Source: Clostridia bacterium | GTDB taxonomy: Bacteria; Bacillota; Clostridia; Christensenellales; CAG-917 | Assembly (NCBI GenBank): GCA_017461985.1 | Contig: JAFTSA010000001.1 | Span: forward strand, 301 to 64,300 | DNA length: 64,000 bases | Direction: 5' to 3' | Part shown: positions 10,577 through 58,104 of the stretch, piece after piece | Position numbering within the stretch: the first letter of the stretch is position 1 | Layout: each line of letters begins with the position of its first letter | The notes under the pieces: model-generated | The model's input: the letters and a program-made list of their open reading frames with translations, nothing else | What the model was told of the DNA's origin: nothing | Databases searched by the model: none | Made by a program: the position numbers and the translations under genes

Positions 10577-10648
10577 CAACGTGAGTAAAACCTTTTATCA
10601 ACGAGCAAACCTTTTTTGCGTAGGACGAAAAACTTATTTTTTTGGACT

Positions 10649-10664
10649 GGTAAAACGATTTATC
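10649..10664 (+). promoter_or_regulatory. Candidate LacI-family operator (CG-centred pseudo-palindrome)
   Basis: GGTAAAACGATTTATC. The half-sites match 6 of 8 positions around a central CG. It lies between the promoter and the TTG start at 10691. Confidence 0.4.
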
Positions 10665-10690
10665 AAACTTATAACAAGGGGGAGTCAAAA

Positions 10691-12154: not shown

Positions 12155-12191
12155 AAAAACGATAATAAATTATACAACCCGGAGGTAAATT

Positions 12192-13085: not shown

Positions 13086-13172
13086 ACTAAAACTTGACTG
13101 TAATAAGCAAAAAAACACACAATCACGTCCATTGCCGACGACGGCATGGATGTGATTGATATGGAGAAAGAT

Positions 13173-14336: not shown

Positions 14337-14349
14337 CATTTATCAAAAT

Positions 14350-14380
14350 GACAGTGCCACAACTTTGATGTGGCACTGTC
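14350..14380 (+). other. Perfect 12-bp stem-loop directly after the binding-protein gene (intra-operon RNA element)
   Basis: gacagtgccaca-actttga-tgtggcactgtc. No T-run follows. Confidence 0.6.
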
Positions 14381-14560
14381 GTTCGATTGCCTTGTTGTTG
14401 AAAAGCAGAGCGAATGAAAATATATGAGTTGCAGTGCCTTGTCAACGAGGTTTGACAAAGCGTCGTTTAGAAGTGTTTTTGACGCAGTGCTTGAGCACAA
14501 CGGGTTATATCAGTCCGACGAAAGCCTTTCAGAGTTGAAGGCTTCGTCAGGGGGATAAAA

Positions 14561-38199: not shown

Positions 38200-39174
38200 T
38201 CAATCAAAGTTGTCGGTGAGGTAGATGCCGATGTGCTCCTTGCCTCTTACGTTGTCGGCGCAGTTGCGTGCATTGAAGTAAAGGCGAAGGTTGTCCTCAC
38301 ACTTCACAAGGTTGCAAGCATACACGTATTGCTTCATCCAGTTTTTGTTTTTGCCCTTTGTGACGGTGGGGGCAAGAAACATCTTTTTGTGGGTGAAGTT
38401 GATGCCGTCATCTGACACAAGAAGCATAATGGTTGAGTGGGATTTGCCACCCTTTTTGTAGATGCCGTTTTGAAGACCTATATAGCAATCGTTGAGCTCA
38501 TACACCTTGATACAACCGGCGCACAAATTCAAATATTCATTGTTTTTGTCGGGGGAGATGATAGGTGTGGTGGCAGGCACAAAACCGCCGTCCAGTCTGT
38601 CGCTTTCCGCATAGGAAATATGAGTGGGCTCAGAGAAACTGCAATCGGTGATATAGGTGAGGCCGGCAGAGAAATACAAGCGATATTTGTCACCGACTTT
38701 TATAAGGTGAGGGTTTGAAACCGACGTGCCAAGACGGCTTGTCATATAGGGCATATTCCCCTTGATGATAGGGGTGGGGGTTGTCCAAGAAATCAAGTCC
38801 TTTGAAGTGGTGAGATAAATCTCTGAAAACCACTTTCCGCCCACAAGGGATATTGCCTTTTTGAAGAGGGACTGGGTTTGCTCATAGTAGAGGTAATAGG
38901 TGCCGTCAACGTAGACGCAGTCGGGGCGCATGGCACGGGGCAAGACGTGAGATGTCCTTGTCCAGTGTATACCGTCATCACTGGTGAAGAGGAACACTCC
39001 AAGAAGTCCGTGACAAAACAGATGCCACTTGCCGTCGTGGGTATTCTCGGGGGTGAGGACTGAGGGGTCTGCGATGACAGGGCTCACCCCAAAGCAGCGT
39101 ATGACGGGATTGTCCTCGTAAAGGTGAAAGTCTTTGTCCAAAAATTGTTGGAGAGTAAGGTCAAGTTTTTTCAT
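38200..39174 (-). CDS. Beta-propeller glycoside-hydrolase-like protein (GH43/GH32/GH130 superfamily resemblance)
   Basis: NPVI..ADPSVL..DGKWHLFCHG, DGIHWTR and DGTYYLYYE repeats are typical of 5-bladed propeller glycosidases. The family was not resolved by eye. Confidence 0.45.
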   Translation of the reverse strand: MKKLDLTLQQFLDKDFHLYEDNPVIRCFGVSPVIADPSVLTPENTHDGKWHLFCHGLLGVFLFTSDDGIHWTRTSHVLPRAMRPDCVYVDGTYYLYYEQTQSLFKKAISLVGGKWFSEIYLTTSKDLISWTTPTPIIKGNMPYMTSRLGTSVSNPHLIKVGDKYRLYFSAGLTYITDCSFSEPTHISYAESDRLDGGFVPATTPIISPDKNNEYLNLCAGCIKVYELNDCYIGLQNGIYKKGGKSHSTIMLLVSDDGINFTHKKMFLAPTVTKGKNKNWMKQYVYACNLVKCEDNLRLYFNARNCADNVRGKEHIGIYLTDNFD

Positions 39175-41953: not shown

Positions 41954-44008
41954 ATGTCACGATTTGGACTGAAAACAGAGCCTATCAACCCGTCACAAAC
42001 CTATGTGAAAAACGGCGTGAGATTGAGTGTCATCACCCCCAGAATACTTCGTGTTGAAAGGAGTGCTGACGGGGTGTTTGAAGACCGTCCCACACAAATG
42101 GTTTTTGAGCGTAATTTTGCAAATCCGCAGTTTAGTGTCATAGAAAACGGCAATAAAGTGACGATTTTGACAAAACAAAAGGAGTTTTCAGTTGACCTGA
42201 ACACCCTTTCCGTCAGTGTGAAAAAGGACGGAAAGTGGGTGTCCTCACACAGCGGCAAAAACCTGAAAGGCACGGCGCGCACCCTTGATTTTTCTTGGGG
42301 CAGATGGCAACTTCAAACGTTGAGAGTGAAACTTGGCAAAGGCATCTTTTCAACAAGCGGTGTCACTGAAATTGACGACAGCAAGTCCTATATTCTTCTT
42401 GAAGACGGAAACGTGTTGGGCAGAAAAAAGGGCACCGTTGACAAATACGTTTTTGCCTTTGACGACGACTATCTTGGAGGGCTCAAAGAGTTTTACTCCT
42501 TGACAGGGGCAACCCCCGTCCTCCCCAAATATTCACTCGGCAACTGGTGGTCAAGATACCACGCATACACTCAAGAGGAATACACCTCTCTTATGGACAA
42601 ATTCATTGAGAAGGAAATCCCCTTGACCGTTGCCACCATTGATATGGACTGGCACCTTGTACATAACCTGCCCAAAGACGTGAAGAAGGAACATTTCGCA
42701 ATTCAAGGCGTTGGTTGGACAGGGTACACTTTTGACAAAAATCTCTTTCCTGACTACAAGCAGTTTTTCAAGGATTTGAAGAGCAAAGGTCTTGCAATAA
42801 CAATGAATCTGCACCCTCGCGACGGAGTGAGATATTTTGAGGATCAATATGAGGATATGGCGAGGGCAAACGGCATTGACCCCTTAACAAAAAAGACTGT
42901 GCCTTTTGACTGCACCGACCTCAACTTTATGAATTCCTATTTTGACTATCTCCACCACCCCTATGAAGAGGACGGCGTGGACTTTTGGTGGATTGACTGG
43001 CAACAGGGCACAAAGTCAAAACTGAAAGGATTTGACCCTCTTTGGGCGCTCAATCATTATCACACTTTGGACAGCGGACGTGACGGACGCACTCCTCTCA
43101 TTTTGTCAAGGTATGCAGGCATAGGCTCACACCGTTATCCTTTAGGATTTTCTGGTGACACCTTTGTGAGGTGGTCAAGCCTGAAACTGCAACCCTATTT
43201 CACCGCAAACGCATCAAACGTGGGCTATACTTGGTGGTCCCACGACATCGGCGGACACGTGGCAGGCAAGGGAGATGGTGAGCTATACACAAGATGGGTG
43301 CAATTTGGCACGTTTTCACCTATCAACCGCTTGCACTCCAACAATTTGTCTTGGAGCAAGGAGCCTTGGCTGTATGGTGACAGGGCAGAAAAGATTTCAA
43401 CTGACTTTTTGAGGTTGAGACATAGACTTTTGCCGTATCTGTACACTGCAAATATCCGCACTGCAAGGGACGGCGAGCCTCTTGTTGCACCTATGTATTA
43501 TCGTGACAACTCACCCCTTGCATATAGGGCAAAAAATCAATACTATTTTGGCAGTGAATTGCTTGTTGCGCCGGTGGTGACAAAGATGAAACCGGACGGC
43601 TATTCCGTCACTGACGTATATCTCCCAGAAGGCAAGTGGACGGACTTCTTCACCGGTGAAATTTACCGTGGCGGAAGGGTGTACAAAATGCGAACTCCCT
43701 TGGATAGAATGCCTGTTTTTGCAAAAGCAGGGGCAATTATCCCTATGATTGCAAAGCGTGACGGCAACAGCCAAAAGTTTGACTCTCTTGAGGTCAAAGT
43801 GTATGCAGGGGAGGGTGAATATCGTATGTTTGATGAGGGCGGTTTCACCGATTTCAAACTGACTGAAATTGAGGGCGGTTATCTTCTCACAATCAACGAC
43901 GACAACAACCCTCAAAAGGCGGACTACAAGGTGACCTTTGTGGATAGAGAAGAGGAAACGGTTATTCTTGAAAAAGGTCAAAAACAGGTCACTTTCCAAA
44001 GGAAGTAA
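41954..44008 (+). CDS. GH31 alpha-glycosidase
   Basis: DFWWIDWQQG, WWSHDIGGH and MPVFAKAGAIIP motifs, 684 aa. Confidence 0.8.
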   Translation: MSRFGLKTEPINPSQTYVKNGVRLSVITPRILRVERSADGVFEDRPTQMVFERNFANPQFSVIENGNKVTILTKQKEFSVDLNTLSVSVKKDGKWVSSHSGKNLKGTARTLDFSWGRWQLQTLRVKLGKGIFSTSGVTEIDDSKSYILLEDGNVLGRKKGTVDKYVFAFDDDYLGGLKEFYSLTGATPVLPKYSLGNWWSRYHAYTQEEYTSLMDKFIEKEIPLTVATIDMDWHLVHNLPKDVKKEHFAIQGVGWTGYTFDKNLFPDYKQFFKDLKSKGLAITMNLHPRDGVRYFEDQYEDMARANGIDPLTKKTVPFDCTDLNFMNSYFDYLHHPYEEDGVDFWWIDWQQGTKSKLKGFDPLWALNHYHTLDSGRDGRTPLILSRYAGIGSHRYPLGFSGDTFVRWSSLKLQPYFTANASNVGYTWWSHDIGGHVAGKGDGELYTRWVQFGTFSPINRLHSNNLSWSKEPWLYGDRAEKISTDFLRLRHRLLPYLYTANIRTARDGEPLVAPMYYRDNSPLAYRAKNQYYFGSELLVAPVVTKMKPDGYSVTDVYLPEGKWTDFFTGEIYRGGRVYKMRTPLDRMPVFAKAGAIIPMIAKRDGNSQKFDSLEVKVYAGEGEYRMFDEGGFTDFKLTEIEGGYLLTINDDNNPQKADYKVTFVDREEETVILEKGQKQVTFQRK

Positions 44009-45037: not shown

Positions 45038-45068
45038 AAAAAACTCCAACTTCGGTTGGAGTTTTTTT
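45038..45068 (+). terminator. Rho-independent terminator after rpsI
   Basis: actccaac-ttcg-gttggagt followed by T7. Confidence 0.85.
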
Positions 45069-45165
45069 GTGTCTTGCTTTATATATAATGAAAAATAAAA
45101 AACTAAAATTATAGAAATATAGTAAACGTGTGCGCGTGCTCACTCGCGCGTGCGCGACAAATATC

Positions 45166-45500
45166 AAAAATTTTGGGGCAGGGAAAGGAAAATCTGCACC
45201 TTGAAAAAGCAATTTTTGATGAAAACTTAAATATTTTTTGAGAGAATTATTGAAAAATTTTTAGGAAGAAAAAGTTTTTTCTAAGCTTAAAAATATTTTT
45301 TTTAGCCGAAGAAAAAAATTTTTTCAAGTTTGAAATCCTCAAAAAGCACACAAAAACAACAAAAAACAAAAATAAAAAAATTGATTTTTGTAAGGTTTTT
45401 AAGAGAAAAAACGGAAAATTTTTGCTGAAAAACCCGCTAAAAAAGTAAAAATTTTGGGCAAAATTCAGTGAATAAAATGCTTAAAAAACTCAATTTTTTA
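45166..45500. repeat. Degenerate array of palindromic A(4-8)/T(4-8) tracts at ~16-25 bp spacing
   Basis: Examples are caaaaattttgggg, gaaaaagcaatttttg, taaatattttttg, gaaaaatttttag, gaaaaagttttttc, taaaaatatttttttta, gaaaaaaattttttc, aaaaaaattgatttttg, ggaaaatttttgc, gtaaaaattttgggc and taaaaaactcaatttttta. AAAAATTTTGGG(G)CA occurs twice (45166 and 45447). Confidence 0.7.
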
Positions 45501-45894
45501 TGAATAAAAGAGGGCATTTGGTGTATGTAGGGGCGTATATGCACACAATATTCCGTATGTTATAAAATTATACGCATATTTATTCATTCATTCACTTTGC
45601 CAAATTAAAGTGATAAATTAAAAAATGGGCGCTTTTGGCAAAAAGTCATCTTTTCACACCGCTTGAATATATAAAGATATACGCATACACGCGCGAAGAG
45701 GGGAAGGGATGGATTAATTATGCAATTAAAATTGATAAAAAATTAATTTTTTGTTAAAAATCATTTGCCATATCGGCAGTGTGCGTTTATAATGTAGATA
45801 ATTTCATTTGAAATGGAGTAGTATACTCCTTTCAGTGAAATCCAAATTCAGTCCAATAAAAAAGGATAATATTTACTCTATGGAGGTAACAACA

Positions 45895-48519
45895 ATGAAG
45901 CAAAGAAAACTCATCGCTGTTGTAGCAATTGTTTTGGTTCTTGTTCTTTGCGCAAGCGTCTTCGTGGCATGTAATAAAGACGAAGATCCTCGCTACTTGG
46001 CAACAACAAAGACCTACAAGACCTACGCATCATCTTTCGCTACATCATGGAACGTCCTTGACTATGAAACATCTGACCAAGGTGACATGTTCTCATATTC
46101 ATCATCAGGCTTCTATGAATTCGACTATAAGTTTGACGAAAATGGTGACGTTGTTGATGGACAATTCACAATCGTGCCCGTTATGGCATCAGATTATCCC
46201 ACCGACATCACAGCAGAAATCGCAGCAGAACCCGACAACGATTATCTCTTTGACGAAGAAGACACTGGTTATGCATGGTACATCCCTGTCCGCAAAGGCA
46301 TGACATGGGACAATGGCGATCCTATCGAACTCGAAGACTGGATCTACTCCATGAAGGAACAACTTAACCCCTTGTTCATGAACTATCGTGCAGACAGCTA
46401 TTACAGCAGCAGTACAGTCATCCACAATGCAAAGAACTATCTCTACAGTGGCAAGACCATCATGGCAAGTGATGACGGCCTCATCGCCGCAATCAACGGT
46501 GGAGCAGACTTCTACTTCAGCCCCGCAGCATCCAACTATCTCTTTGGACCTTATGGCGGTCTCGCATCAAGCTACGGAATCCTTCCTACATTTGATTCTC
46601 TCTACAATGACTACTTTGTTGTGACCTATGAAGAACAAGCAGCAGCAGCATGGGAAGCAGGCGAAGACCTTGCAGACGGCGCTATCAAGAAGGCAGATTA
46701 CGACACCCTCGAAGCATTTACACAAGCATACGTTGACTACAAGTTCACCGGTGCAGGCGCATCACCACTGCGTGCAGCAATCAGTGAAGTCTACACAATC
46801 ATCGACACACTTACTCCCGTAGAAGAAGGCACAGCAGCAGGTTACTATCTCGTGACAGATGAACTTCTTGCAGCACTCGATGCAGTTTCACAAGGTTTCT
46901 TCGGCGGCAACTATGGTTGGGCAATGTGCAGCTACATCGGTCAATATCCTGAAACCACTTTTGATCAAGTTGGTCTTAGAACAATTGACGATGGCGAACG
47001 CTACGGCCTCATCCTCATCCTCGATGTTCCTTATGTTGACAATGGTTCACACTTCGTTTGGGCATATGACTTCGGCGGCAACTGGCTCGTCAAGCCCGAT
47101 GTCTATGAAGCATGCAAAGTTGCTCCCGCAGACGGAAGCGAACTCTGGACAAGCACATACGGCACATCAATCGAAACATCACCTTCATACGGCCCCTACA
47201 AACTCACCGCATATCAAACCGGTAAGTACTATGAATTCTCAAAGAACGATGCATGGTTTGGTTACAGCATCCCTGAACTTTCAGAAGGCTACTATGAAAC
47301 AGACAAGATCCAATGCTCATTGATGGAAGAATGGGACACCGCATGGATGGCATTCCAAAAGGGTGACCTCGCAGGCATCGGCATGGACGTTAAGATCGCA
47401 GACGAATACAAGACATCAGCACGTGCATACTTCACTCCTGATGACTATGTCAACACCGTCCAAATCCAAACATCAATCGCAGCAGAACCCGATGACGGCA
47501 TCGCAAAAGAAATCCTCCTCAACACCAAGTTCAGAAAGGCACTCTCACTTGCAATTGACCGTGTTGAATATGCAAAACAATGCACCACATCATCACTGGC
47601 AGGCTTTGGTATCTACAACAGCATGCACTACTATGATGTTGAAAACGGTGGCGTCTATCGTAACACCGACATCGCAAAACAAGTTATCTGTGACGTTTAT
47701 GCAGTTGATGTGAACGATTATGATTCACTTGATGATGCATATGCAGCAGTCGTCGGCTACGACCTCGCACTTGCAAAGCAACTCGTTGCTGAAGCAATCG
47801 CAGAAGAAATCGCAGCAGGCACAATCAAGGCAACTGATGTCCTCGACATCACTTACGGCTCATCAGTTGATAGTGAAGCAGCACGTCGTCCTTACAACTT
47901 CTTGAAGGCAGCATGGGAAAAGATCTTTGAAGGCACACAATTTGCAGGCACTGGCTTCGTCTTCAACTATGACGGAACACACGGTGACGCATATGCAAAC
48001 GACTTCAAGGCAGGCCAATACGAAGTCCTCTCAGCAGGTTGGTCCGGCGCAGCATGGGATCCTTTCTACTTCATGATGGCATACATCCACGATGATTACA
48101 GATACGCACAAGGTTGGGATCCTAGAACTGTCAAAGTCACAGTCACCCTCAACAACGTTGACCCTGAAACAGGCGAATGGCTTGGTGAAGGCAATGGCGA
48201 AACCGCATCATTCACAATGGATGCACTCACAATGTGGGAAGAACTTTACGAAGGCACATGGGCAGAAGGCGAATGCAACGTTGAAAACCGCCTCCTCATC
48301 CTCGGCGCACTCGAAAAGACAGTCCTTGAATCATACTGCTCAATCCCCGTTACATACAGCTTTGGTGCAGCACTCCGCAGCTATCAAATCGAAGCATTCA
48401 CCGACACATACAACACATTCATGGGTTGGGGCGGCATCAAGTACTACAGCTACAACTACAACGATGGCGACTGGGCAAGATACGTTGACAGCCAAAACGG
48501 TCAACTCAACTACAAATAA
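45895..48519 (+). CDS. Oversized family-5 (Opp/Dpp-type) ABC substrate-binding lipoprotein (~874 aa)
   Basis: GGAGG RBS. Lipobox VFVACNKDE. SBP_bac_5-like block YIPVRKGMTWDNGDPIELEDWIYSM and YYEFSKNDAWFGY. Very acidic, with strongly biased codons. Confidence 0.8.
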   Translation: MKQRKLIAVVAIVLVLVLCASVFVACNKDEDPRYLATTKTYKTYASSFATSWNVLDYETSDQGDMFSYSSSGFYEFDYKFDENGDVVDGQFTIVPVMASDYPTDITAEIAAEPDNDYLFDEEDTGYAWYIPVRKGMTWDNGDPIELEDWIYSMKEQLNPLFMNYRADSYYSSSTVIHNAKNYLYSGKTIMASDDGLIAAINGGADFYFSPAASNYLFGPYGGLASSYGILPTFDSLYNDYFVVTYEEQAAAAWEAGEDLADGAIKKADYDTLEAFTQAYVDYKFTGAGASPLRAAISEVYTIIDTLTPVEEGTAAGYYLVTDELLAALDAVSQGFFGGNYGWAMCSYIGQYPETTFDQVGLRTIDDGERYGLILILDVPYVDNGSHFVWAYDFGGNWLVKPDVYEACKVAPADGSELWTSTYGTSIETSPSYGPYKLTAYQTGKYYEFSKNDAWFGYSIPELSEGYYETDKIQCSLMEEWDTAWMAFQKGDLAGIGMDVKIADEYKTSARAYFTPDDYVNTVQIQTSIAAEPDDGIAKEILLNTKFRKALSLAIDRVEYAKQCTTSSLAGFGIYNSMHYYDVENGGVYRNTDIAKQVICDVYAVDVNDYDSLDDAYAAVVGYDLALAKQLVAEAIAEEIAAGTIKATDVLDITYGSSVDSEAARRPYNFLKAAWEKIFEGTQFAGTGFVFNYDGTHGDAYANDFKAGQYEVLSAGWSGAAWDPFYFMMAYIHDDYRYAQGWDPRTVKVTVTLNNVDPETGEWLGEGNGETASFTMDALTMWEELYEGTWAEGECNVENRLLILGALEKTVLESYCSIPVTYSFGAALRSYQIEAFTDTYNTFMGWGGIKYYSYNYNDGDWARYVDSQNGQLNYK

Positions 48520-48586
48520 GTCTTTGATTTGGAACTAAGAGCAAACTCTTAACCCAAGCATGATTTATAATCAAGCGATGAAATAT

Positions 48587-48610
48587 GCTACTCCGCGAAA
48601 GCGGAGTAGC
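48587..48610 (+). other. Perfect 10-bp GAAA-tetraloop hairpin after the binding-protein gene
   Basis: gctactccgc-gaaa-gcggagtagc. No T-run follows. Confidence 0.6.
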
Positions 48611-48716
48611 ACACATCGTTTAAAAGGATATTTTTTCAAAAGCCGCAAGGCAGTTATTTTTTTGTTTGGCGACTTTTGAAAAAATATCAATCGAACAAAA
48701 GCAATAGGAGACAACA

Positions 48717-49661
48717 ATGATTAAATACACTATAAAAAGATTTTGCTTGATGTTATTTACATTGTTTTCCATTATGACAATCTGCTTCGTGCTGATTAAG
48801 TCACTTCCTTTGGTTGTTGACGTGGGATTGGGCAAAGATGCCGAATTCTTGGAAGGTATCATTGAAGCACGTGGCTATAGAAAGCCGGTTATGGAACAGT
48901 ATGTCACATATCTTGGAAGAATTTTCCAAGGTGACTTTGGTGTTGGTATTAATATGGAAAAGGGAACATATGTCCTCGACAACTTCCTTCAAAGACTTCC
49001 CGCAACCATGATTATCAACATTTACGCAATGTTGATTTCAGTGCCTGTTGGCCTTGGTCTCGGCATCTTTGCAGCACTGAAAAAGAACAAGTGGCAAGAC
49101 CAAGTCATTTCAACCGGCGTTATGATTTTCATCTCAGTGCCCAGCTATGTTTACGCATTCTTGGTGCAATATTTGCTTTGCTTCAAGGGAGGACTTCCTT
49201 TGCAGATGAAAAACGGAACGGACTGGCTAAGTTGGGATATGTTTGTGTCTGTCCTTGCGCCTGTTTTGTCGCTGTCCTTTGGTACAATTGCGGGCTTTGC
49301 GAGATATACAAGAGCAGAGCTCACCGAAGTGCTCACAAGTGACTTTATGCTCCTTGCACGCACAAAGGGTTTGACCAGAGGTCAAGCAACCATCCGTCAC
49401 GCACTCCGCAACGCAATGGTCCCCATCTTCCCCATGATTATTGGTGAATTTGTTGGCATCATTGGTGGCTCACTGATCATTGAACAAATCTTCGGTGTCC
49501 CCGGCGTTGGCAGATTGTATCTTAACTCAATCACAACTTTGGACTATGACTACTTTATGTTCTTGTCCATGTTCTATACAGCGATAGGTCTTGCAGCCGG
49601 TATCCTTGTTGACTTGAGCTATGGCTTTATTGATCCTAGAATTAGAATGGGGGCGAAATAA
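48717..49661 (+). CDS. OppB/DppB-type ABC permease
   Basis: AGGAG RBS. EAA-like region LLARTKGLTRGQATIRHALRNA. Confidence 0.85.
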   Translation: MIKYTIKRFCLMLFTLFSIMTICFVLIKSLPLVVDVGLGKDAEFLEGIIEARGYRKPVMEQYVTYLGRIFQGDFGVGINMEKGTYVLDNFLQRLPATMIINIYAMLISVPVGLGLGIFAALKKNKWQDQVISTGVMIFISVPSYVYAFLVQYLLCFKGGLPLQMKNGTDWLSWDMFVSVLAPVLSLSFGTIAGFARYTRAELTEVLTSDFMLLARTKGLTRGQATIRHALRNAMVPIFPMIIGEFVGIIGGSLIIEQIFGVPGVGRLYLNSITTLDYDYFMFLSMFYTAIGLAAGILVDLSYGFIDPRIRMGAK

Positions 49662-49663
49662 TT

Positions 49664-51304
49664 ATGGAAAGAACTGAATACGTAATCAATAAGTCTTCAT
49701 TTGAATTTGTCAACCTTGACAGCAACATCCATGACAACAAACTTGACACCAAGCCTGTTGGTTATCTTCGTGATGCTCTCCGCCGTTTTGCAAAAAACAA
49801 AGGCTCTGTGGTTGCAGCAGGAATCATTTTGATCCTTGTTTTGTTTGCAATCATCGCACCTATGGCATCAGATTATACTGTTTCTTTCAGAGACCCTTAT
49901 TTTAGAACAACTCTTCCCATCTGCACCGCAGCAAAGAACAATCCCAATATGGATTTCTGGGATGGTTGCTCGGAAGTTGAGCTTGCTCAAACCACATTTG
50001 AACTTTACTACGGCATCAACGTAGAATCAGGTCAAGAAGCGGTCAAGCGCGGAGAATATACCGTCCGTCAAGTCACAAGAGAGTTGAAAAACAACAAGAC
50101 AAGAGTGGACAATTTGTACACCTTCCGACTTAACTCTTACTACAAGGTGGGTGCATACTACAAGAACTTGACCCTTGAAGAATATCGTTCAATTCAAGAA
50201 TATCAAGACAGAACAGGCAAGCAAGTGCTTTATCCCGTTGTTGCAAAGAAAGAACGTGTCACCGCACTTCTTGACCAACTTGATCCCAGCACCGCATCAT
50301 CAAAGACATATATCAACGATGACGGCAACTTCTGGTATAAGGTCAAGATCTCATCAAAAGCACCTTACACTCCCACAGCGGTCTTTGATGAAAATGGCAA
50401 CTACATAAACAACTACGCAGTTGATCCTACCTCAGACAAGGACTTGTACACAAGCAAGATGCTTGTTGAGGGCGACACCAAACAATATCTCTACGGCATC
50501 AAAAACCAAAATGGTTTTGAAGTGAGAATCAACTACTATGAATACTTCTGCTATGTTCACTATATGGCAGGGGACGGCATTGAATCTCCTCACTTCATTT
50601 TCGGCACAAATGGTGACGGACAAGACATCTTCACATGCCTTGCAGCAGGTGCAAGATTCAGCTTCTTGTTGGCAATTCTTGTTTCAATCATCAACCTCAC
50701 ACTGGGCGCAATCTACGGCGCAATCGAAGGTTACTATGGCGGTCTTGCAGATATCTGCATGGAAAGAATTTCAGACATCTTGGGCGCAATCCCTATGATG
50801 ATCGTCCTCACCCTTGTCAGATTGCAACTTTCAAACAAGACAGATATTCCTTCACAGGACATCGCCCTTGTTTCAATGATCATATCCTTCCTGGCAACTG
50901 GTTGGATTGGCATGGCATCAAGCGTCCGTATGCAATTCTACCGTTTCAAGAATCAGGAATATGTCCTCGCTGCACGCACTCTTGGCGCAAGAGACAGACG
51001 CATCATCTTGAAACATATCTTGCCCAACAGCTTGGGAACACTCATCACAGGATCAGTCCTTGTCATTCCTGGTGTTATGTTCAGTGAATCATCATTGGCA
51101 TACCTGGGCATTTTGGACCTTTCAACCTCAACGTCAACCTCAATCGGTGTGTTGCTGGCAAACGGCCAACCCTACTTGACAACATATCCTCACGTCATTT
51201 TGTTCCCCGCATTGTTCATCTCATTGTTGATGCTGTCATTCAACCTGTTCGGCAATGGTCTTAGAGACGCATTCAACCCGCAACTTAGAGGATCGGAGGG
51301 CTAA
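49664..51304 (+). CDS. OppC/DppC-type ABC permease with a ~250-aa extracytoplasmic insertion after TM1
   Basis: N-terminal RRFAKNKGSVVAAGIILILV, a ~250-aa hydrophilic segment, then the conserved core (AARTLGARDRRIILKHILPN). 546 aa, against roughly 300 as I recall for this family. Confidence 0.8.
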   Translation: MERTEYVINKSSFEFVNLDSNIHDNKLDTKPVGYLRDALRRFAKNKGSVVAAGIILILVLFAIIAPMASDYTVSFRDPYFRTTLPICTAAKNNPNMDFWDGCSEVELAQTTFELYYGINVESGQEAVKRGEYTVRQVTRELKNNKTRVDNLYTFRLNSYYKVGAYYKNLTLEEYRSIQEYQDRTGKQVLYPVVAKKERVTALLDQLDPSTASSKTYINDDGNFWYKVKISSKAPYTPTAVFDENGNYINNYAVDPTSDKDLYTSKMLVEGDTKQYLYGIKNQNGFEVRINYYEYFCYVHYMAGDGIESPHFIFGTNGDGQDIFTCLAAGARFSFLLAILVSIINLTLGAIYGAIEGYYGGLADICMERISDILGAIPMMIVLTLVRLQLSNKTDIPSQDIALVSMIISFLATGWIGMASSVRMQFYRFKNQEYVLAARTLGARDRRIILKHILPNSLGTLITGSVLVIPGVMFSESSLAYLGILDLSTSTSTSIGVLLANGQPYLTTYPHVILFPALFISLLMLSFNLFGNGLRDAFNPQLRGSEG

Positions 51305-51307
51305 ACT

Positions 51308-53491
51308 ATGGAAAAGAAACTTGAAGTCAAAAACCTTAGAATATCTTTCCGTACTGACGCAGGCAAAGTTCAAGCTGTCCGTGGCATAGACTTTGACCTC
51401 TACAAGGGTGAAACCCTTGCAATCGTTGGCGAATCCGGTTCAGGAAAGTCAGTCACAAACAAAGCTATCATCGGCATTTCAGCACCCAACGCAATCATTG
51501 AAAGTGGTGAAATCCTTTATGATGGTATGGACCTTCTTCAAATCAGTGAAGACGATTTCCACAAACTTCGTGGCGACAAGATTGCAATGATCTTCCAAGA
51601 TCCTTTGTCAGCACTGGACCCCATCAACCGCATCGGTATGCAACTTACCGAAGCAATGATCCTTAAAAACCGCGCAAACAGACGCGAATCAAGAAGGCTG
51701 TTCAACCGCACAATTAAGAATCTTTGCACAGCAATGAACGGTGCAATGGGCGTTGACGCAAACAGCGAACAAGGCAAGATCAACAAGCAAAAAATCACCG
51801 ACTTTAACACCTTTGAGAAACTCCATCTCAAGCTTGAAGGCGCATACAACGAAGCACACACCAATGCAAGCCTTGCAATCGAAGATATTGAAGACCTCCT
51901 TTTCCACATTGAGAAGAAGGCTGTCAGTGACTTCGGCGCAGAAAAGAGCAACATCATCCGTGCAGCAAAGAAGTCTGTTCACGAATATGTCTGTTCAGAC
52001 AAAGTTGTTGCACTGGCAGAGGCATTTAAGGAAGCATCAAAGGGTTGCACAAGAGCAAAGGACTATACCCCTTGTGTCGAACCTTTGAAGGCACTCCTTG
52101 AAGAATTGAAGGAAGGAGCAGCCAAGCTGTCCCCCAACTACTTTGCATTGGCATACTTCCTCACCTTTGGCAAGGAAGAACTTCCCAAACTGCCCACTGA
52201 TGAGCTCAATGTCTATCTCCGTAGATACCTTGACGACAACTTCATGCTCGCTTTCATCGAAGATGAAAAGAAGGGTTTGATTTATTCACGTGAATGTTCA
52301 CTGGACAACAGAGCAGAAGCTATCGCAACCATCCAATCATTGAGAGATGTGTTCACAGCAGAAACCCTGGACAAGAAGGCATGCAAAGCAGCTGCAAAAC
52401 AAATGACAGATGCAGTTGCAAAGGCAATCGACAAGCTCGCTCTTGTTAAGGATTCAACAGCATACACCTTTAAGGCAAGTCTTAATCGCGCAATCAACAC
52501 ATATTTCACAGCAGGTCCTTCAAACGCAAAAGAAGAAAAGCGTTTCAACAAGGAAAAGAAGAAATATGACAAGATCATTGCAAAGGGCAAGACACCTGAT
52601 TACTCAGTTATCCCTGCAAGAATCATCGACATCGACATCGCAAAGGAAAATATCCTTCATGTCATCGACAAGGTCACAGCTGCATTTAAGACTGCAATTG
52701 ACAATCGTGACAACTACGATGCAGACAAAGAAGCAGTGGCAATGATTGACTTCCTCAAAGAAAAGGCACAAGCAGTTGCATACCGCGTCACAAAGCGTAT
52801 CGCAAAGAGCAAGGCCCTGAAACTTATGGAAGAAGTGGGCATTGCAGAACCTAAGAAGAGATATCGTCAATATCCTTTCCAATTCTCAGGTGGTATGCGT
52901 CAACGTATCGTCATCGCAATTGCACTTGCTGCAAACCCTGACATCCTCATCTGTGACGAACCTACAACCGCTCTTGACGTGACAATTCAAGCACAAATCC
53001 TTGAACTCATCAACAAGATCAAGAGAGAAAGAAATTTGTCCATCATCTTCATCACCCACGACCTCGGCGTTGTGGCAAACATGGCTGACCGTATTGCAGT
53101 TATGTACGCAGGCAAGATTGTTGAAACTGGCACATCAGAAGATGTCTTCTATTCACCTGCACACCCCTATACATGGGCACTTCTTTCATCAATGCCTGAC
53201 CTTGACACCAATGAGAAGTTGGAAGCCATCCCCGGCACACCTCCCAATATGATCTATCCTCCCAAGGGAGATGCATTTGCAGCACGTAATAAGTATGCAA
53301 TGAAGATCGATTTCGAGTTGCAACCTCCCATGTTCAAGATCAGCGATACACACTCTGCTGCAACTTGGCTTTTGCACCCCGATGCACCCAAAGTGGAATT
53401 GCCCAAGGCAATCTCTGCACGTATCGAACGCATGAAGACAAAGAATAACATCGGAGCAGAACCCCAAAATACTGAAGAAGGAGAAAACTGA
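51308..53491 (+). CDS. OppD-type ABC ATPase with a ~365-aa insertion between the Q-loop and the ABC signature
   Basis: GESGSGKS (aa 41-48) and MIFQDP (aa 94-99). FSGGMRQR appears only at aa 526, then ILICDEPTTALD. C-terminal oligopeptide-ATPase tail PAHPYTWALL. Confidence 0.85.
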   Translation: MEKKLEVKNLRISFRTDAGKVQAVRGIDFDLYKGETLAIVGESGSGKSVTNKAIIGISAPNAIIESGEILYDGMDLLQISEDDFHKLRGDKIAMIFQDPLSALDPINRIGMQLTEAMILKNRANRRESRRLFNRTIKNLCTAMNGAMGVDANSEQGKINKQKITDFNTFEKLHLKLEGAYNEAHTNASLAIEDIEDLLFHIEKKAVSDFGAEKSNIIRAAKKSVHEYVCSDKVVALAEAFKEASKGCTRAKDYTPCVEPLKALLEELKEGAAKLSPNYFALAYFLTFGKEELPKLPTDELNVYLRRYLDDNFMLAFIEDEKKGLIYSRECSLDNRAEAIATIQSLRDVFTAETLDKKACKAAAKQMTDAVAKAIDKLALVKDSTAYTFKASLNRAINTYFTAGPSNAKEEKRFNKEKKKYDKIIAKGKTPDYSVIPARIIDIDIAKENILHVIDKVTAAFKTAIDNRDNYDADKEAVAMIDFLKEKAQAVAYRVTKRIAKSKALKLMEEVGIAEPKKRYRQYPFQFSGGMRQRIVIAIALAANPDILICDEPTTALDVTIQAQILELINKIKRERNLSIIFITHDLGVVANMADRIAVMYAGKIVETGTSEDVFYSPAHPYTWALLSSMPDLDTNEKLEAIPGTPPNMIYPPKGDAFAARNKYAMKIDFELQPPMFKISDTHSAATWLLHPDAPKVELPKAISARIERMKTKNNIGAEPQNTEEGEN

Positions 53492-53493
53492 TT

Positions 53494-54792
53494 ATGAGTG
53501 AAATTTTGAACGAACAAGAAGTCCTTCTCCAAGAAGAAACAGTTGAAGCAACCCCCGAAAAGCGCGAAATCAGTGATGAAGTGCTTTTGAAGGTTGAAAA
53601 TCTTTGCCAATTCTTCAAGCTTGGTCAATCCACATTGAAGGCAGTCAACAACGTCAGTTTTGAGGTCAAAAAGGGCGAAGTTTTCGGTTTGGTTGGCGAA
53701 TCCGGTTGTGGCAAAACCACAACAGGCAGAAGCATTATCAAACTCTACAACTGCACATCAGGCAATGTCTATTTTGACGGCAAGAGAATTTGCGCAGGCA
53801 CTGGTTCATACAAAGACACCAAAAAGGCAGCCTTCAAAGAAGTTGTTGATGCATACAAGTCAAAAGATGCAGACAAAGCAACAAAGAAGGCCGCTCTTGA
53901 CAAATATCTTGCAGTAGCCAAAGAAGAAAACGCAAAAATTAAAGCCGCAAAACACGACCAAAAGAAGTGTGACAAGGACTACGCAAAGCAAAAGATTGCA
54001 GAAGTTAAGGCTGAATATCTCCCCAAACTCAAAGAGATGGACAAGAAATCTCCTGAGTATAAGGAAACTCTCAAAAACTTCTTGAAGGAATATCGTCTTG
54101 CAAGCAAGGAACGTTTGGTCACCAAGATCCAAATGGTCTTCCAAGATCCTATCGCATCCCTTGACCCCCGTATGACCGTCAAAGAAATCATCGCAGAAGG
54201 TCTTATCATCAAGGGTATCCGTGACAAGAAAGTCATCGAAGAAAAGGTCTATGAAGTCCTTGAAAAGGTCGGCCTTGTCAGAGAACACGCAGGCAGATAT
54301 CCTCACGAATTCTCCGGCGGTCAAAGACAACGTATCGGTGTGGCACGTTCAATCATCATGAACCCCAAGCTCATCATCGCAGACGAACCTGTCAGTGCTC
54401 TTGACGTGTCAATTCAAGCACAGGTCATCAACCTCTTGAACGACCTTCGTCATGAACTTGGCCTCACAATTCTCTTCATCGCCCACGACCTTTCAGTTGT
54501 CAAATACTTCTCAGATCGTATCGCAGTTATGTATTTCGGCAATATGGTTGAATTGACCACCTCAGAAGAGCTGTTCAAGCATCCTCTGCATCCTTATACA
54601 AGATCATTGTTGTCAGCAATTCCTCTTCCTGACCCTATTTATGAAAAGAAGAGAGAACGTATTGTCTACAATCCTCTTGCTGATCACGACTACTCAGTGG
54701 ACAAGCCTACACTTCGCGAAGTGGCTCCTGGACACTTTGTTTCTTGCAACGACGCAGAGTTCAAGAAATATCAAGAGATTCTCGCAAAATAA
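53494..54792 (+). CDS. OppF-type ABC ATPase with a ~90-aa lysine-rich insertion before the Q-loop
   Basis: GESGCGKTT (aa 68-76), FDGKRI (aa ~94), then a K/A/E-rich stretch up to MVFQDP (aa 214-219). FSGGQRQR, and a PLHPYTRSLL tail. Confidence 0.85.
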   Translation: MSEILNEQEVLLQEETVEATPEKREISDEVLLKVENLCQFFKLGQSTLKAVNNVSFEVKKGEVFGLVGESGCGKTTTGRSIIKLYNCTSGNVYFDGKRICAGTGSYKDTKKAAFKEVVDAYKSKDADKATKKAALDKYLAVAKEENAKIKAAKHDQKKCDKDYAKQKIAEVKAEYLPKLKEMDKKSPEYKETLKNFLKEYRLASKERLVTKIQMVFQDPIASLDPRMTVKEIIAEGLIIKGIRDKKVIEEKVYEVLEKVGLVREHAGRYPHEFSGGQRQRIGVARSIIMNPKLIIADEPVSALDVSIQAQVINLLNDLRHELGLTILFIAHDLSVVKYFSDRIAVMYFGNMVELTTSEELFKHPLHPYTRSLLSAIPLPDPIYEKKRERIVYNPLADHDYSVDKPTLREVAPGHFVSCNDAEFKKYQEILAK

Positions 54793-54794
54793 CA

Positions 54795-55211
54795 GTGGAC
54801 AAAGCAAAGAAAACACTTATAACATATTTGATTACCATCGCAGTTGCCGCCGTCTTGATGATTGGCGTCAGCGCGTTGCGTGGGGCATTTTCAGTGGCGC
54901 TCACCCAAAAGGAAGCAATACAATGTGCCTGTGATGCATTCTTTGTTGTTGGCATGGTATATCTGTGTGCAGGAGGCGTTATGTGGGCTTCCAGAAAGGG
55001 CACCTTCGACGGATTGGGATACTCCTTTTCATTGTTGAAACAACGCTATACCAAAAACAAAAGAAATTGGCAAAACGAAGAATCCTTTTATGACTACAAA
55101 GAACGTAAGGCAGAAAAGAAAAAGGAAAAGAGAAGCAACCATTTGGTGATCATCGGCGGAATCTTTGTTATCGTTGCAGCAATACTTCTTGTGGTATTCT
55201 ACTATGCATAA
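54795..55211 (+). CDS. Small membrane protein (DUF3899-like), start uncertain
   Basis: Two or three hydrophobic spans flank a basic loop KRNWQNEESFYDYKERKAEKKKEKR. The start is either GTG 54795 or the tracked ATG 54744, which overlaps the ATPase gene. Confidence 0.55.
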   Translation: MDKAKKTLITYLITIAVAAVLMIGVSALRGAFSVALTQKEAIQCACDAFFVVGMVYLCAGGVMWASRKGTFDGLGYSFSLLKQRYTKNKRNWQNEESFYDYKERKAEKKKEKRSNHLVIIGGIFVIVAAILLVVFYYA

Positions 55212-55228: not shown

Positions 55229-55257
55229 AGCGGACACGAAAGTGTCCGCTTTTTTTT
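55229..55257 (+). terminator. Rho-independent terminator ending the Opp-like operon
   Basis: agcggacac-gaaa-gtgtccgct followed by T8. Confidence 0.85.
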
Positions 55258-55423
55258 GTTCGTAATCCGCGAGCAAAAACACATTAAAATCTTGAAACAA
55301 GGGAAATAATCAACAAAAGAAAAAGATTTGTCATTTATTTGCACAAATTATCACACAAATTTGCTTTAGCGCTTTACTTTCTTAAAGAAAAAGTGTAAAA
55401 TATAGGTATAAATGAGGCAACCT

Positions 55424-55750
55424 ATGAATCTTTTTGAAATCTTTGCAAAACTTAATACCGCTGAAGAAGTAGAAGCATTTTTTGACGATCTCTGCACCTA
55501 TGCAGAAATCGAAAAAATGGAGCAACGTGTAGAAGCCGCACAAATGTTCCTTGACGGCGCAACCTACAATCAAGTCATACAAAAAACAGAAATATCATCT
55601 GCAACATTGTCCCGTGTGTCACGTTGTATACGTCACGGAAGCGGCGGCTATAGCGATATTCTCCGCAGACTTGTGGCAGAGCAAAGAGCGGCCGCAGAGG
55701 GCGCAGAAGAGGCCACTGAACCTGCAACAGAAGAAGGCGCAGAGGAATAA
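55424..55750 (+). CDS. YerC/YecD (TrpR-like) family protein with an acidic Ala/Glu tail
   Basis: GAGG 6 nt before ATG 55424. LCTYAEIEKMEQRVEAAQMFLDGATYNQVIQKTEISSATLSRVSRCIRHGSGGY. Confidence 0.75.
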   Translation: MNLFEIFAKLNTAEEVEAFFDDLCTYAEIEKMEQRVEAAQMFLDGATYNQVIQKTEISSATLSRVSRCIRHGSGGYSDILRRLVAEQRAAAEGAEEATEPATEEGAEE

Positions 55751-55827
55751 TCATAAAACAACAGAATACGACAAAATCCACCGTGCAACCGAAAGGATGT
55801 GCGGTTTTTTTGTTGCAAAATTTTGGT

Positions 55828-58104
55828 ATGCAATCAGGTTTGAGAAAGAAAAAAAGACAACGGGCATACCTTGTCAGCCCCTACGTAGCACTCAGGTATA
55901 CGGCGGAGTTTCTGTTGATGATATTGTTTTTTTCAACAGGTAAGACTGGCTTTGCCCTTGCGCTAGGATTGTTTGCAGGGCTAACTTTTGCACGGCAAAA
56001 TCTCATCATCACAGCTCCTATGTTTGTGGTGGCAGGCATGGTGTTTTTGGACAGTTGGTGGACTATGATGTTTCTTGCAGTTCCACCTGTTGTTTTTGCC
56101 GTTTTATATTTCCTGTACACCCGTTTCAAAAAGAACGTGCCTGTGTGGGCGGTGGTGTTTTGCACCTTGATTTCCGCCCTTGCTGAAAGCGTCACAAGGC
56201 TATTGCTTTTTGGTGATGGACTGCGATTTGCACTGACTGTTGTGCTGTCAGTTGTTTTTGCTTTATGTTGCACAAACGCCTGTTATGCAGTGCTAATCAG
56301 AGGTATAAAGTGCCGATTTACGCTGGATGAACATATTTGCACTGCAATCTTTGCGGTGGCATTTGCATACGCTTGCCACGGTGTCAGTGTGTATGGTTTC
56401 AACCTATATTTCCTCATTTTGCCCTTTGTGATAATGTGCTTTGCCTACGGCGGAAGTGGTCGAAATGCCATACTTGTCAGTGTATTGTTTTCCTTGGGCG
56501 CAGTCCTAAATAGCTTTAATTTTTCTTTGGTCGGTGTCAGTGTGTTGCTGGGGTTTATAGTGACTGCGCTCACCTCATTTCATAGGTTTATTCCTGCCGT
56601 GTCTATGGCGGTTTTGATGATAGGATTTTGGCTTTTGAAGATAGGTGACCTTGGCTATCAAGGGGCGGTGATGACGCTCATTGGTGGATTTGCCTACGGC
56701 TTTTTGCCGAGAGATATAAGGAGCAAATTCCCTCGCCCATCAAGGGATAAAGCGGAGTCACTTTGCGCCATGGTCAATCGTGACAGGACAAATCTTTCAA
56801 ATAGATTGTTGTCTGTCAGTGACGTGTTTTTGGATCTTGCCGAGCAACTTGACGATGAGGACAATGACAAAAATCCATACACCGCGAAACGGCTGTCAAA
56901 GGAGATTGCCAAAAACTATTGTGGCAAGTGCAGTGAGCGGCAAAAGTGTTTTTCCGCTCTTGGTGGTGACACCTCGTCTGTCCTTGAAGGAATGTGCGAA
57001 GCCACGCTCACAAGAAACAAAGCAACCATACTTGACGTGCCCAACTTTATTTCGTCTAGGTGCATCAAAACCCACAACCTCATCTCAGTCATCAACAACG
57101 CCGGCGAAGCATACAAATCAAAGATTGCAGGAAGCCGTGAGCTTTTCAATTGCAAGAAGACAATGTCCGCCCAGTTTGCTGGTATGTCGTTGGTGCTTGA
57201 ATCTCTGTCAAAGGAGTGTGGCAAAAACCTCACCTTTGGAGGTGACGTGGAAGAGCGCATTGAAAACGAGCTGATGAAACACAACATCGTTGCCACCGAA
57301 ACTGTTGTGGCAGGAAAGGGCGCATCGTCACGGGTTGCCCTCACTGTCCGTGACGTAGATGTTGAAAAGACCATGCTGACAAAAACTGTATCCAACTGTC
57401 TTCAAAACCCCTACGTCATTGAAAAAGTCACAGACCGCGGAGAGGAAAAGACTGTACATTTGGTGACAGCGCCTGTCTTTCAAGTGGCATATGGCGTTGC
57501 GGAAAAACGCCGTGACGGCGAAGAGGTGTCGGGGGATAGCATGGCAGTGCTTTCACCCTCTATGAACAAGCGGATATTTGCCTTGTCAGATGGCATGGGC
57601 AGTGGTGAAAAGGCCTCTATTGCCTCAAAAAAATCTTTAAGCATGATTGAGAATTTCTATCGCGCAGGCTTTGAGGAGGGGTTGATATTGTCCCTTGTCA
57701 ATCAACTTTTGTGCCTTGTCAGTGAGGATAATTTTTCCGCCCTTGATATTGCAGTGGTTGACCTTGCCCTCGGCGGTGTTGACGTCATCAAAATGGGGGC
57801 AGCCTCAGGGTTTATCTTGCGAAAATCCGCAGTGGAAGTGTTGCGTGCAGATACCCCACCCCTTGGCATAGTGGACAGAATTGCGCCCACAACCGCAAGA
57901 CACCAACTGTATGACGGGGATATGCTCGTCCTTGCCACGGACGGAGTGGTTGATGCTCTCGGTGAAAACGGTGTTGTGGACGTTGTGGACGAGGCTCACA
58001 CCACAAATCCTCAAACCTTGGCGGACAAACTTCTTCTTGGGGCGCTATCCCGTGGGGCGGAAGACGACTGCACGGTTTTGGTATTGCGCATCCTTGCAAT
58101 ATGA
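55828..58104 (+). CDS. spoIIE: Stage II sporulation protein E (membrane PP2C phosphatase)
   Basis: About 10 N-terminal TM spans. C-terminal PP2C motifs SGDSMAV, LSDGMGSGEKA, ATDGVVDA and DDCTVLVLRI. Confidence 0.85.
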   Translation: MQSGLRKKKRQRAYLVSPYVALRYTAEFLLMILFFSTGKTGFALALGLFAGLTFARQNLIITAPMFVVAGMVFLDSWWTMMFLAVPPVVFAVLYFLYTRFKKNVPVWAVVFCTLISALAESVTRLLLFGDGLRFALTVVLSVVFALCCTNACYAVLIRGIKCRFTLDEHICTAIFAVAFAYACHGVSVYGFNLYFLILPFVIMCFAYGGSGRNAILVSVLFSLGAVLNSFNFSLVGVSVLLGFIVTALTSFHRFIPAVSMAVLMIGFWLLKIGDLGYQGAVMTLIGGFAYGFLPRDIRSKFPRPSRDKAESLCAMVNRDRTNLSNRLLSVSDVFLDLAEQLDDEDNDKNPYTAKRLSKEIAKNYCGKCSERQKCFSALGGDTSSVLEGMCEATLTRNKATILDVPNFISSRCIKTHNLISVINNAGEAYKSKIAGSRELFNCKKTMSAQFAGMSLVLESLSKECGKNLTFGGDVEERIENELMKHNIVATETVVAGKGASSRVALTVRDVDVEKTMLTKTVSNCLQNPYVIEKVTDRGEEKTVHLVTAPVFQVAYGVAEKRRDGEEVSGDSMAVLSPSMNKRIFALSDGMGSGEKASIASKKSLSMIENFYRAGFEEGLILSLVNQLLCLVSEDNFSALDIAVVDLALGGVDVIKMGAASGFILRKSAVEVLRADTPPLGIVDRIAPTTARHQLYDGDMLVLATDGVVDALGENGVVDVVDEAHTTNPQTLADKLLLGALSRGAEDDCTVLVLRILAI

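Follow-up and report, generated by a model that had tools for sequence, protein, structure and literature searches.

A widespread Opp-type ABC importer enlarged by clade-specific inserted domains in uncultured gut and rumen Clostridia

Why should four of the five subunits of an otherwise familiar oligopeptide-type transporter be larger than their relatives of known structure? The locus that raises this question lies on a contig from a Clostridia bacterium (JAFTSA010000001.1), of which we analysed one continuous stretch of 64,000 nucleotides (hereafter, the window). Bases 45895–55211 of the window form a single six-gene operon on the + strand, oppA-oppB-oppC-oppD-oppF-DUF3899, whose products are assigned from their sequences to a type I ATP-binding cassette (ABC) importer of the Opp/Dpp family (peptide/nickel, TC 3.A.1.5-type). 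An earlier reading of the DNA (the original prediction) held that every component of this transporter is oversized except the OppB-type permease. We find that the operon encodes an undescribed, widespread variant of a familiar transporter and not a new kind of system. Our best explanation of the whole, to which we give a probability of about 0.72, is a conventional Opp transport cycle supplemented by clade-specific accessory domains that are kept by selection. The genes, and the regions that enlarge their products, are listed here.

45895–48519, + strand: oppA-like substrate-binding lipoprotein gene, 874 amino acids (SBP_bac_5, cluster C)
46552–47139, + strand: main extra region of OppA (residues ~220–415), without counterpart in solved OppA structures
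48717–49661, + strand: oppB permease gene, 314 amino acids, ordinary size (BPD_transp_1 and BPD_transp_1_N)
49664–51304, + strand: oppC permease gene, 546 amino acids (OppC_N at residues 34–79, BPD_transp_1 at 349–542)
49871–50593, + strand: OppC extracytoplasmic domain in the loop between transmembrane helices 1 and 2 (TM1–TM2; residues ~70–310, bounds from alignment with Escherichia coli OppC)
51308–53491, + strand: oppD ATPase gene, 727 amino acids (ABC_tran split between residues 25–109 and ~495 onwards; oligo_HPY at 605–666)
51659–52783, + strand: all-helical insert of OppD (residues 118–492, 375 amino acids), in the helical subdomain, after the first helix following the Q-loop
53494–54792, + strand: oppF ATPase gene, 432 amino acids (ABC_tran and oligo_HPY)
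53776–54099, + strand: Lys-rich helical insert of OppF (residues ~95–202, ~105 amino acids, 26% Lys), before the Q-loop
54795–55211, + strand: gene for a small DUF3899 membrane protein, 138 amino acids with about three hydrophobic segments (Pfam DUF3899, E = 2.6e-18)

All five opp open reading frames are uninterrupted under translation table 11, and independent gene calls on a window-identical scaffold from a ruminant gastrointestinal metagenome (ENA ERZ28653984) returned the same five lengths (874, 314, 546, 727 and 432 amino acids). Each of the five ATG starts has a Shine–Dalgarno-like sequence upstream; that of oppA, at M30 of the maximal reading frame, stands behind GGAGG. Set against the E. 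coli chains of OppC (302 amino acids), OppD (336) and OppF (333), and against solved OppA-type binding proteins of 517–590 amino acids, the four predicted oversizings hold with exact reading frames, and OppB is indeed of ordinary length beside homologues of 316–333 amino acids and models of ~306 positions. The original prediction had also named wrong start or stop calls as a possible source of the sizes; these are excluded by the internal position of the inserts, the lengths of homologues and the Shine–Dalgarno sequences.

Beneath the extra domains lies a canonical core, made up of a cluster-C binding protein with a lipid anchor, two permeases of six helices each and two complete ATPases that both carry oligo_HPY, the C-terminal domain specific to Opp. 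The catalytic motifs are all present, as GESGSGKS, FQDP, FSGGMRQR, ILICDEP and ITHD in OppD and as GESGCGKT, FQDP, FSGGQRQR, LIIADEP and IAHD in OppF. OppA has a signal peptide with a lipobox cysteine, Cys26, that is at least 90% conserved among homologues, and it matches SBP_bac_5 with an E-value of 4e-26 (92 bits against a cutoff of 32), the match spanning residues 423–733 only. The best NCBIfam match of OppB is Opp3B, over positions 1–304 of 308, and the modelled transmembrane domain of OppC was matched by Foldseek to Mycobacterium tuberculosis OppC and to E. coli OppC and DppC (OppC/DppC chains, E = 1e-12 to 1e-9).

Opp/Dpp systems of known structure (E. coli OppBCDF and DppABCDF; M. tuberculosis OppABCD and DppABCD) have the same five parts in the same gene order, sharing the cluster-C binding protein, the permeases with OppC_N and BPD_transp_1, the oligo_HPY ATPases and all catalytic motifs, and searches of the PDB by sequence and by fold both rank their subunits first. 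They differ from the system described here in several respects. Through internal inserted domains, OppA is ~1.6 times, OppC 1.8 times, OppD 2.2 times and OppF 1.3 times as long as its solved counterparts; the operon has the additional DUF3899 gene; and the binding protein, instead of being periplasmic, is a lipoprotein. The C-terminal domains of the two ATPases also lack the four cysteines that hold a [4Fe–4S] cluster in E. coli DppD and DppF, a cluster that has been reported for M. tuberculosis OppD as well (PMC12136057). OppD has no cysteine after residue 549, so its C-terminal domain cannot hold such a cluster, and the C-terminal domain of OppF has Cys418 only.

The longest of the inserts is that of OppD. 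Residues 3–117 of this protein align with residues 3–116 of M. tuberculosis OppD, and residues 493–685 with residues 122–316, so that the 375-residue block takes the place of about five residues. The original prediction was right about the excess length of OppD and gave no position for it; the alignment places it after the Q-loop. AlphaFold2, supplied with homologue alignments, folded the insert as a bundle of long helices with a predicted local distance difference test score (pLDDT) of 85–95. Neither sequence nor profile searches of the insert gave a match in Pfam, NCBIfam or the PDB, hhalign found no internal repeats in it, and a Foldseek search of the PDB with the whole OppD model returned nucleotide-binding domains only. 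A HMMER search of 1.84 billion representative proteins yielded just 152 matches to the insert, which in near-full-length proteins (~575 amino acids or more) nearly always fell at residues ~118–500; the small number of matches and their fixed position mark the insert as a clade-restricted domain confined to its OppD context. In 75 species its length stays within 372–398 amino acids, and dozens of its positions are invariant. No equivalent of the insertion site was found in Mollicutes models, solved structures or literature searches, and the site appears to be unique to this clade.

OppC is enlarged on the opposite face of the membrane. Its residues 25–76 align with residues 16–67 of E. coli OppC and its residues 304–540 with residues 76–300, leaving ~228 extra residues between TM1 and TM2, which is where the original prediction had put them. 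The AlphaFold2 model of this ectodomain is a mixed alpha/beta fold with pLDDT mostly 86–95. It had no match in NCBIfam and none in the PDB or Pfam, even as a 22-sequence profile, and Foldseek with the whole OppC model found transporter-core matches alone in the PDB. The ectodomain is present in 77 of 77 aligned homologues, at 201–299 amino acids; hhalign detected no internal repeats within it and no match between it and the OppA insert. MalF of the E. coli maltose transporter MalFGK2, likewise a type I importer, also has a large extracytoplasmic domain inserted into a loop of the permease: its P2 domain, which contacts the binding protein. We draw this parallel as a functional analogy only: P2 lies between TM3 and TM4 of a protein from another transporter family, the OppC ectodomain lies between TM1 and TM2 and its contact with OppA is conjectural, and Foldseek comparison of OppC with MalF was weak (TM-scores 0.21–0.28).

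The OppF insert lies between the strand GNVYFDG and the sequence IQMVFQDP, so a Lys-rich insertion before the Q-loop is found as predicted. Its median net charge among homologues is +8 and its length is 83–127 amino acids in 76 species; searched alone or as a profile, it matched nothing in Pfam, NCBIfam or the PDB. Elsewhere in OppF, the first 28 residues are variable among homologues. The two ATPase inserts show a faint likeness to each other. Aligned by hhalign, they scored 35.7 (probability 62%, 13% identity), with 20 column-shuffled controls scoring at most 14.3, and OppD residues ~327–420 (52286–52567) share the motif D-[KQ]-K-x-C-x-K with OppF residues ~124–196 (53863–54081). This weak likeness may reflect a common origin or merely a helical, Lys-rich composition, and homology is not established.

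OppA carries a surplus of ~300 amino acids that is spread through the protein. Alignment of the OppA family profile with peptide-binding proteins falls into three blocks, with ~195 of the profile positions (173–369) set against ~55 residues of the structure 6npo, and there are further, smaller expansions outside residues ~220–415. The main extra region varies in length among homologues (117–155 amino acids) and, when searched alone, had no Pfam or NCBIfam match, nor was there one in the PDB. Both OppA and the OppC ectodomain are acidic and rich in aromatic residues (9–11% Tyr). We recovered 291 homologues of OppA; among the 120 listed, all are of 790–1180 amino acids save one truncated entry. 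Some reach ~1160–1180 amino acids (P0253, P0269, P0289 and P0307), and three of these four carry extra cell-surface repeat domains (Big_3, Flg_new and PF18998), OppA thus being elaborated still further in some lineages.

How far do these features extend beyond the window? Scanning a one-genome-per-species collection with patterns from the OppD insert gave 467 matching stretches, of which the best 80 were taken as loci for comparison. All 80 come from metagenome-assembled genomes of uncultured Clostridia from gut, rumen or faeces; many bear the label Christensenella or Christensenellaceae, and some bin names are clearly unreliable. The order A-B-C-D-F and the unusual sizes recur in all 80 loci wherever the flanks are present, with OppA at ~780–1000, OppC at 507–626, OppD at 714–807 and OppF at 384–508 amino acids, and OppB ordinary. 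The expansions on the two faces of the membrane, which the original prediction described as coordinated, are therefore inherited together. More than 120 homologue clusters with full query coverage were found for each of OppD, OppC and OppA; the OppD clusters are 61–100% identical to the query and nearly all ~715–757 amino acids long, and the OppC clusters are at least 46% identical and of 505–592 amino acids. Hundreds of species of uncultured Clostridia from gut and rumen have kept the operon. Homologues are annotated at source as "hypothetical protein" or "ABC transporter permease", our literature searches on the OppD, OppF or OppC inserts found no description of them, and no characterised homologue with the same extensions turned up in either. 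Within the window, a Bmp/PnrA-type ABC importer (13146–18228) has components of ordinary size, which makes the enlargement specific to the opp operon.

The inserts diverge faster than the proteins that carry them. Across ~70 species, median identity is 42% for the OppD insert, 34% for the OppF insert and 29% for the OppC ectodomain (against 59% for the OppC transmembrane domain), compared with 59–88% for the cores. The ratio of non-synonymous to synonymous substitution rates (dN/dS), which was estimable only for the two ATPase inserts, is 0.10–0.14 for that of OppD and 0.18–0.30 for that of OppF, with 0.03–0.08 in the ATPase cores; both inserts are under purifying selection. Divergence along the operon is mosaic. 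The relatives nearest to the window by OppD and OppF (L001 and L002, 77–98% identity) have OppA at 30–36% and the OppC ectodomain at 24–31%, and the proportion of synonymous differences (pS) is uneven within oppD itself, at 0.22–0.38 in the core and 0.59–0.64 in the insert. Such a pattern points to operons that are paralogous and have undergone gene conversion or recombination, or else to a strong codon constraint in the core. Correlations of identity to the window across loci likewise show the ATPase module to be partly decoupled from the permease and extracellular module.

The sixth gene begins 3 nucleotides past the oppF stop codon, leaving a gap of 2 nucleotides. In 66 of the 80 loci, oppF is directly followed by a DUF3899 homologue in the same orientation, which is the only conserved neighbour. 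In Enterococcus faecalis V583, the opp operon, described as ordinary, also contains a DUF3899 gene, in that case embedded in antisense and encoding ~100 amino acids (bioRxiv 10.64898/2026.09.22.753285). The association of DUF3899 with Opp is hence not confined to this clade, which points to a wider, uncharacterised link between the two. As a separate observation on gene content, six of the loci encode a ~600-amino-acid lipoprotein that has an HEFGH motif and no Pfam match (for example, L049 11479–13419), possibly an unannotated secreted metallopeptidase.

What might such a system import? To judge from homology, oligopeptides are the most likely substrate. When compared with the PDB, the OppA family profile gave E-values of 1e-14 for 6npo, 3e-13 for PrgZ and 3e-12 for Bacillus subtilis OppA, and of 1e-14 to 1e-9 for peptide binders overall (including B. 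subtilis DppE, enterobacterial OppA and MppA), as against 1e-4 to 1e-5 for oligosaccharide binders (a chitin-oligosaccharide binding protein and Thermotoga proteins). The best permease models are Opp3B and Opp3C of Staphylococcus aureus, and in 17 of the 80 loci (including L010) the operon is followed, after ~1.2 kb, by a pair of genes for PmbA/TldD metallopeptidases. SBP_bac_5/Opp-type systems import oligosaccharides in some bacteria, and the system could instead be an importer for oligosaccharides or another non-peptide solute, with OppA and the OppC ectodomain as carbohydrate-handling surfaces. That would accord with the acidic, 9–11% Tyr composition of both, with the great distance of OppA from every solved peptide binder, with the weak matches of its profile to sugar-binding SBP_bac_5 members, and with the glycoside hydrolase (GH) genes in the window (a GH31 gene at 41954–44008 and a weak, below-cutoff GH43-like one at 38200–39174); in addition, one of 22 OppC-ectodomain sequences had a marginal match to each of two carbohydrate-binding modules. 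We nevertheless consider it unlikely, given that the peptide binders are ahead in the profile comparison, by 5 to 10 orders of magnitude, and that the recurring neighbours of the operon are PmbA/TldD peptidases. The module matches are single-sequence and not significant, and the GH genes are cut off from the opp operon by rplM-rpsI and a terminator and are not conserved neighbours in the 80 loci.

Other explanations concern the inserts themselves. They might be tolerated, largely neutral elaborations of surface loops, with a single origin in the ancestor of the clade and no function beyond that of an ordinary Opp. Their sites are indeed loops that vary among ABC proteins, the unrelated inserts that Mollicutes have at the OppF site suggest that this site is permissive, the inserts contain no recognisable catalytic or ligand-binding fold, and at 29–42% identity against 59–88% they evolve far faster than the cores. 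Neutrality is nonetheless unlikely in our view: it sits badly with an OppD insert held to 372–398 amino acids and dozens of invariant positions in 75 species, with dN/dS of 0.10–0.14 and 0.18–0.30 in the OppD and OppF inserts, with the confident, ordered folds given by AlphaFold2, and with the cost of ~1,000 extra codons in a codon-optimised and presumably highly expressed operon. That the sizes are artefacts of annotation or assembly (wrong starts, stop read-through or fused genes) has virtually no chance of being true. Such doubt is confined to the first 28 residues of OppF and the start of the DUF3899 gene; the reading frames are intact, the lengths are repeated in independent assemblies, and the inserts are internal, lying between conserved core motifs. 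Inserts that are both internal and conserved refute the artefact explanation of the sizes.

Enlarged Opp proteins also occur in the Mollicutes. The Mycoplasma mycoides JCVI-syn1 system (NCBIfam MMSYN1_0165 to 0168) has OppD and OppF models that are oversized as well, at 561 and 649 positions, and Mycoplasma hominis OppA (P100), a multifunctional ecto-ATPase and adhesin, has 961 amino acids, with its Walker A and Walker B reference motifs at residues 869–876 (PMC3179953). Might the present operon be a Mollicutes-type Opp, and hence a system already on record, that is present in Clostridia by shared descent or horizontal transfer? The M. mycoides models are the best for OppD and OppF (452 and 410 bits, versus 336 and 323 for E. 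coli-type models), NCBIfam profile coordinates put the OppF insert at the pre-Q-loop site where OppD and OppF of M. mycoides have inserts that are much longer, and the OppA described here shares its large size with that of M. hominis. We find this origin very unlikely all the same. Although MMSYN1_0168 (M. mycoides OppF) is the best NCBIfam match of OppF, it is below cutoff, and all four subunits score well under the curated equivalog cutoffs: 452 against 740 for OppD, 410 against 800 for OppF, 188 against 370 for OppC and 116 against 350 for OppB. Searched alone, the inserts had no match to the mycoplasma models at E up to 1. The OppD insert comes after the Q-loop here and before it in mycoplasma; the mycoplasma OppC model, of 307 positions, has no ectodomain; and OppA has no Walker A motif (by a search for [AG]xxxxGK[ST]), and so is without the ecto-ATPase motif of M. 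hominis OppA. The host, moreover, encodes SpoIIE and uses the standard genetic code. A mollicute origin of the window itself is ruled out by SpoIIE and by reading frames that are intact under table 11.

Some observations weigh against the favoured reading, that of a peptide-importing Opp with selected accessory domains, or against particular steps in it. As a single sequence, the OppA of the window matched solved peptide binders weakly (E = 0.003), and at the motif GW..D..DP an Asp of 6npo is replaced by Ala in the OppA family, which leaves room for an unusual ligand. Across loci, OppA and the OppC ectodomain correlate poorly in their identity to the window sequences (rho = 0.30), giving no co-evolution support to the idea that the two dock. 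The ATPase core of OppD was modelled poorly by AlphaFold2 (pLDDT below 50 in parts), and the orientation of its insert relative to the transporter is accordingly not fixed by the model. The DUF3899 gene has a GTG start without an obvious Shine–Dalgarno sequence, which leaves its exact start uncertain.

With these points in mind, the favoured reading can be set out as a mechanism. The mode of transport is almost certainly conventional: OppA would dock, ATP would close the ATPase dimer and access would alternate, as in the usual cycle. In E. coli DppBCDF, DppB pairs with DppD and DppC with DppF, the TM1–TM2 loop of DppB forms a scoop motif that enters the binding protein, and DppD residues near 100–114 touch the coupling helix (PMC12136057). 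By analogy, OppB would pair with OppD, and OppC with OppF. Homology would further place the OppC ectodomain on the face at which OppA docks, in the pseudo-symmetric counterpart of the OppB scoop loop, where it probably widens the docking and sealing surface for an oversized binding protein. On the inner side, the OppD insert would emerge beside the coupling interface, after the helix that in E. coli DppD touches the coupling helix; a probable accessory module, made of the two ATPase inserts and possibly of DUF3899 as well, would regulate or stabilise the coupling of ATPases to permeases. For the expansions as a whole, the original prediction had suggested possible extra functions such as substrate processing, surface display or regulation. 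A bolder extension, which we regard as doubtful, is a six-subunit machine in which DUF3899 and the additional ~1,000–1,100 residues all have a part: the OppC ectodomain and OppA would make an outer platform, and the helical inserts of OppD and OppF, with their weak mutual likeness, an inner assembly for gating, sensing or scaffolding, for example in feedback control of the ATPases or in the docking of peptidases to imported peptides. DUF3899 might then anchor the inner assembly. If true, type I importers would gain a regulatory or architectural principle that is new for them, located at the interface between ATPase and coupling helix.

The operon has boundaries and signals of its own, as follows.

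45038–45067, + strand: terminator-like hairpin after rpsI, with a T-run behind its perfect stem of 13 bp; it bounds the opp unit on the upstream side
45765–45793, + strand: promoter-like site TTGCCA-17-TATAAT, ~100 nucleotides 5′ of oppA, agreeing with the consensus at 11 of 12 positions; the best site in the region, as a consensus match only
48587–48610 and 48628–48687, + strand: two hairpins in the oppA–oppB spacer, strong by fold energy
55229–55258, + strand: intrinsic terminator-like hairpin closing the six-gene unit, a 9-bp stem with 6 G-C pairs followed by TTTTTTTT

The ribosomal protein gene rpsI ends at 45021, and an AT-rich spacer of ~830 bp (45070–45890) separates its hairpin from oppA. 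Between oppA and oppB, the spacer of 200 nucleotides folds with an energy of −70 kcal/mol (z-score −9.4 against shuffled sequences). Intercistronic hairpins are a classic arrangement by which the mRNA of a binding protein is raised above that of its permeases, and those described here would probably favour OppA over the permeases in the same way, by stabilising the mRNA or by partial termination. An Rfam scan found no riboswitch or leader, and a search for CodY boxes gave no site near the opp operon. The spacer 5′ of oppA is itself rich in repeats: it contains many palindrome-like repeats of A5–7/T5–7, a GC-rich palindromic island near 45128–45158, and three AATTTTTGNTGAAAA-like copies at 45211, 45417 and 45492. 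Among the relatives, the exact AATTTTTGNTGAAAA motif recurs only in the closest, L001, where it likewise precedes oppA. This spacer might be an operator array or curved DNA.

The original prediction had further proposed very high expression, on the strength of an extreme codon bias, a +2 frame free of stops for hundreds of codons, and the position of the operon next to ribosomal protein genes. The strong codon bias was confirmed: the effective number of codons is 33.7–41.1 in the opp genes and 33.7–36.6 in rplM and rpsI, and 45 or higher in most other genes of the window (range 39–56). Opp genes that equal the ribosomal protein genes in this respect would fit high expression, and the bias suggests that the system is abundantly expressed. 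The stop-free frame did not survive inspection, as the longest open stretch in an alternative frame of the opp genes is 155–156 codons, and spoIIE has one of 184. As for the ribosomal protein genes, rplM and rpsI do lie upstream, but they belong to a separate unit, and no rplM/rpsI-like family was present among the flanking-gene clusters shared by the 80 related loci (clusters of at least three loci each). Given this unconserved adjacency and the operon's own promoter-like site and terminator, the ribosomal neighbours are no evidence on opp expression.

Between the opp operon and spoIIE (55783–58104) lies a gene of the Trp_repressor family (YerC/YecD-like, 112 amino acids, 55412–55750), and spoIIE is followed by tilS, hpt and a gene of the poly(A) polymerase/CCA-adding family (with PolyA_pol and HD domains). 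This order of genes is typical of sporulating Firmicutes and identifies the host as a spore-former rather than a mollicute: it is an uncultured spore-forming Clostridia bacterium of the ruminant gut. At the other end of the window, the first 13 kb hold large open reading frames with little or no Pfam annotation (352–1530, 2208–4109, 5092–8733 and 10616–13085), among them products of 633, 512 and 297 amino acids without a Pfam match and one of 1213 amino acids with a weak Big_2 repeat only. A LuxR-type protein that has a Listeria-Bacteroides repeat is encoded next to them, and they may be a cell-surface gene cluster.

Opp/Dpp transporters are among the best-studied of ABC transporters, and the first full structures appeared in 2024–2025. 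Against that background, the operon described here defines two domain families that have had no annotation, and it gives DUF3899 a context that can be tested. The codon bias suggests that this is a top-expressed uptake system of these Clostridia, which would probably make it central to nitrogen acquisition in its hosts, the widespread and uncultured Clostridia of gut and rumen that carry it.

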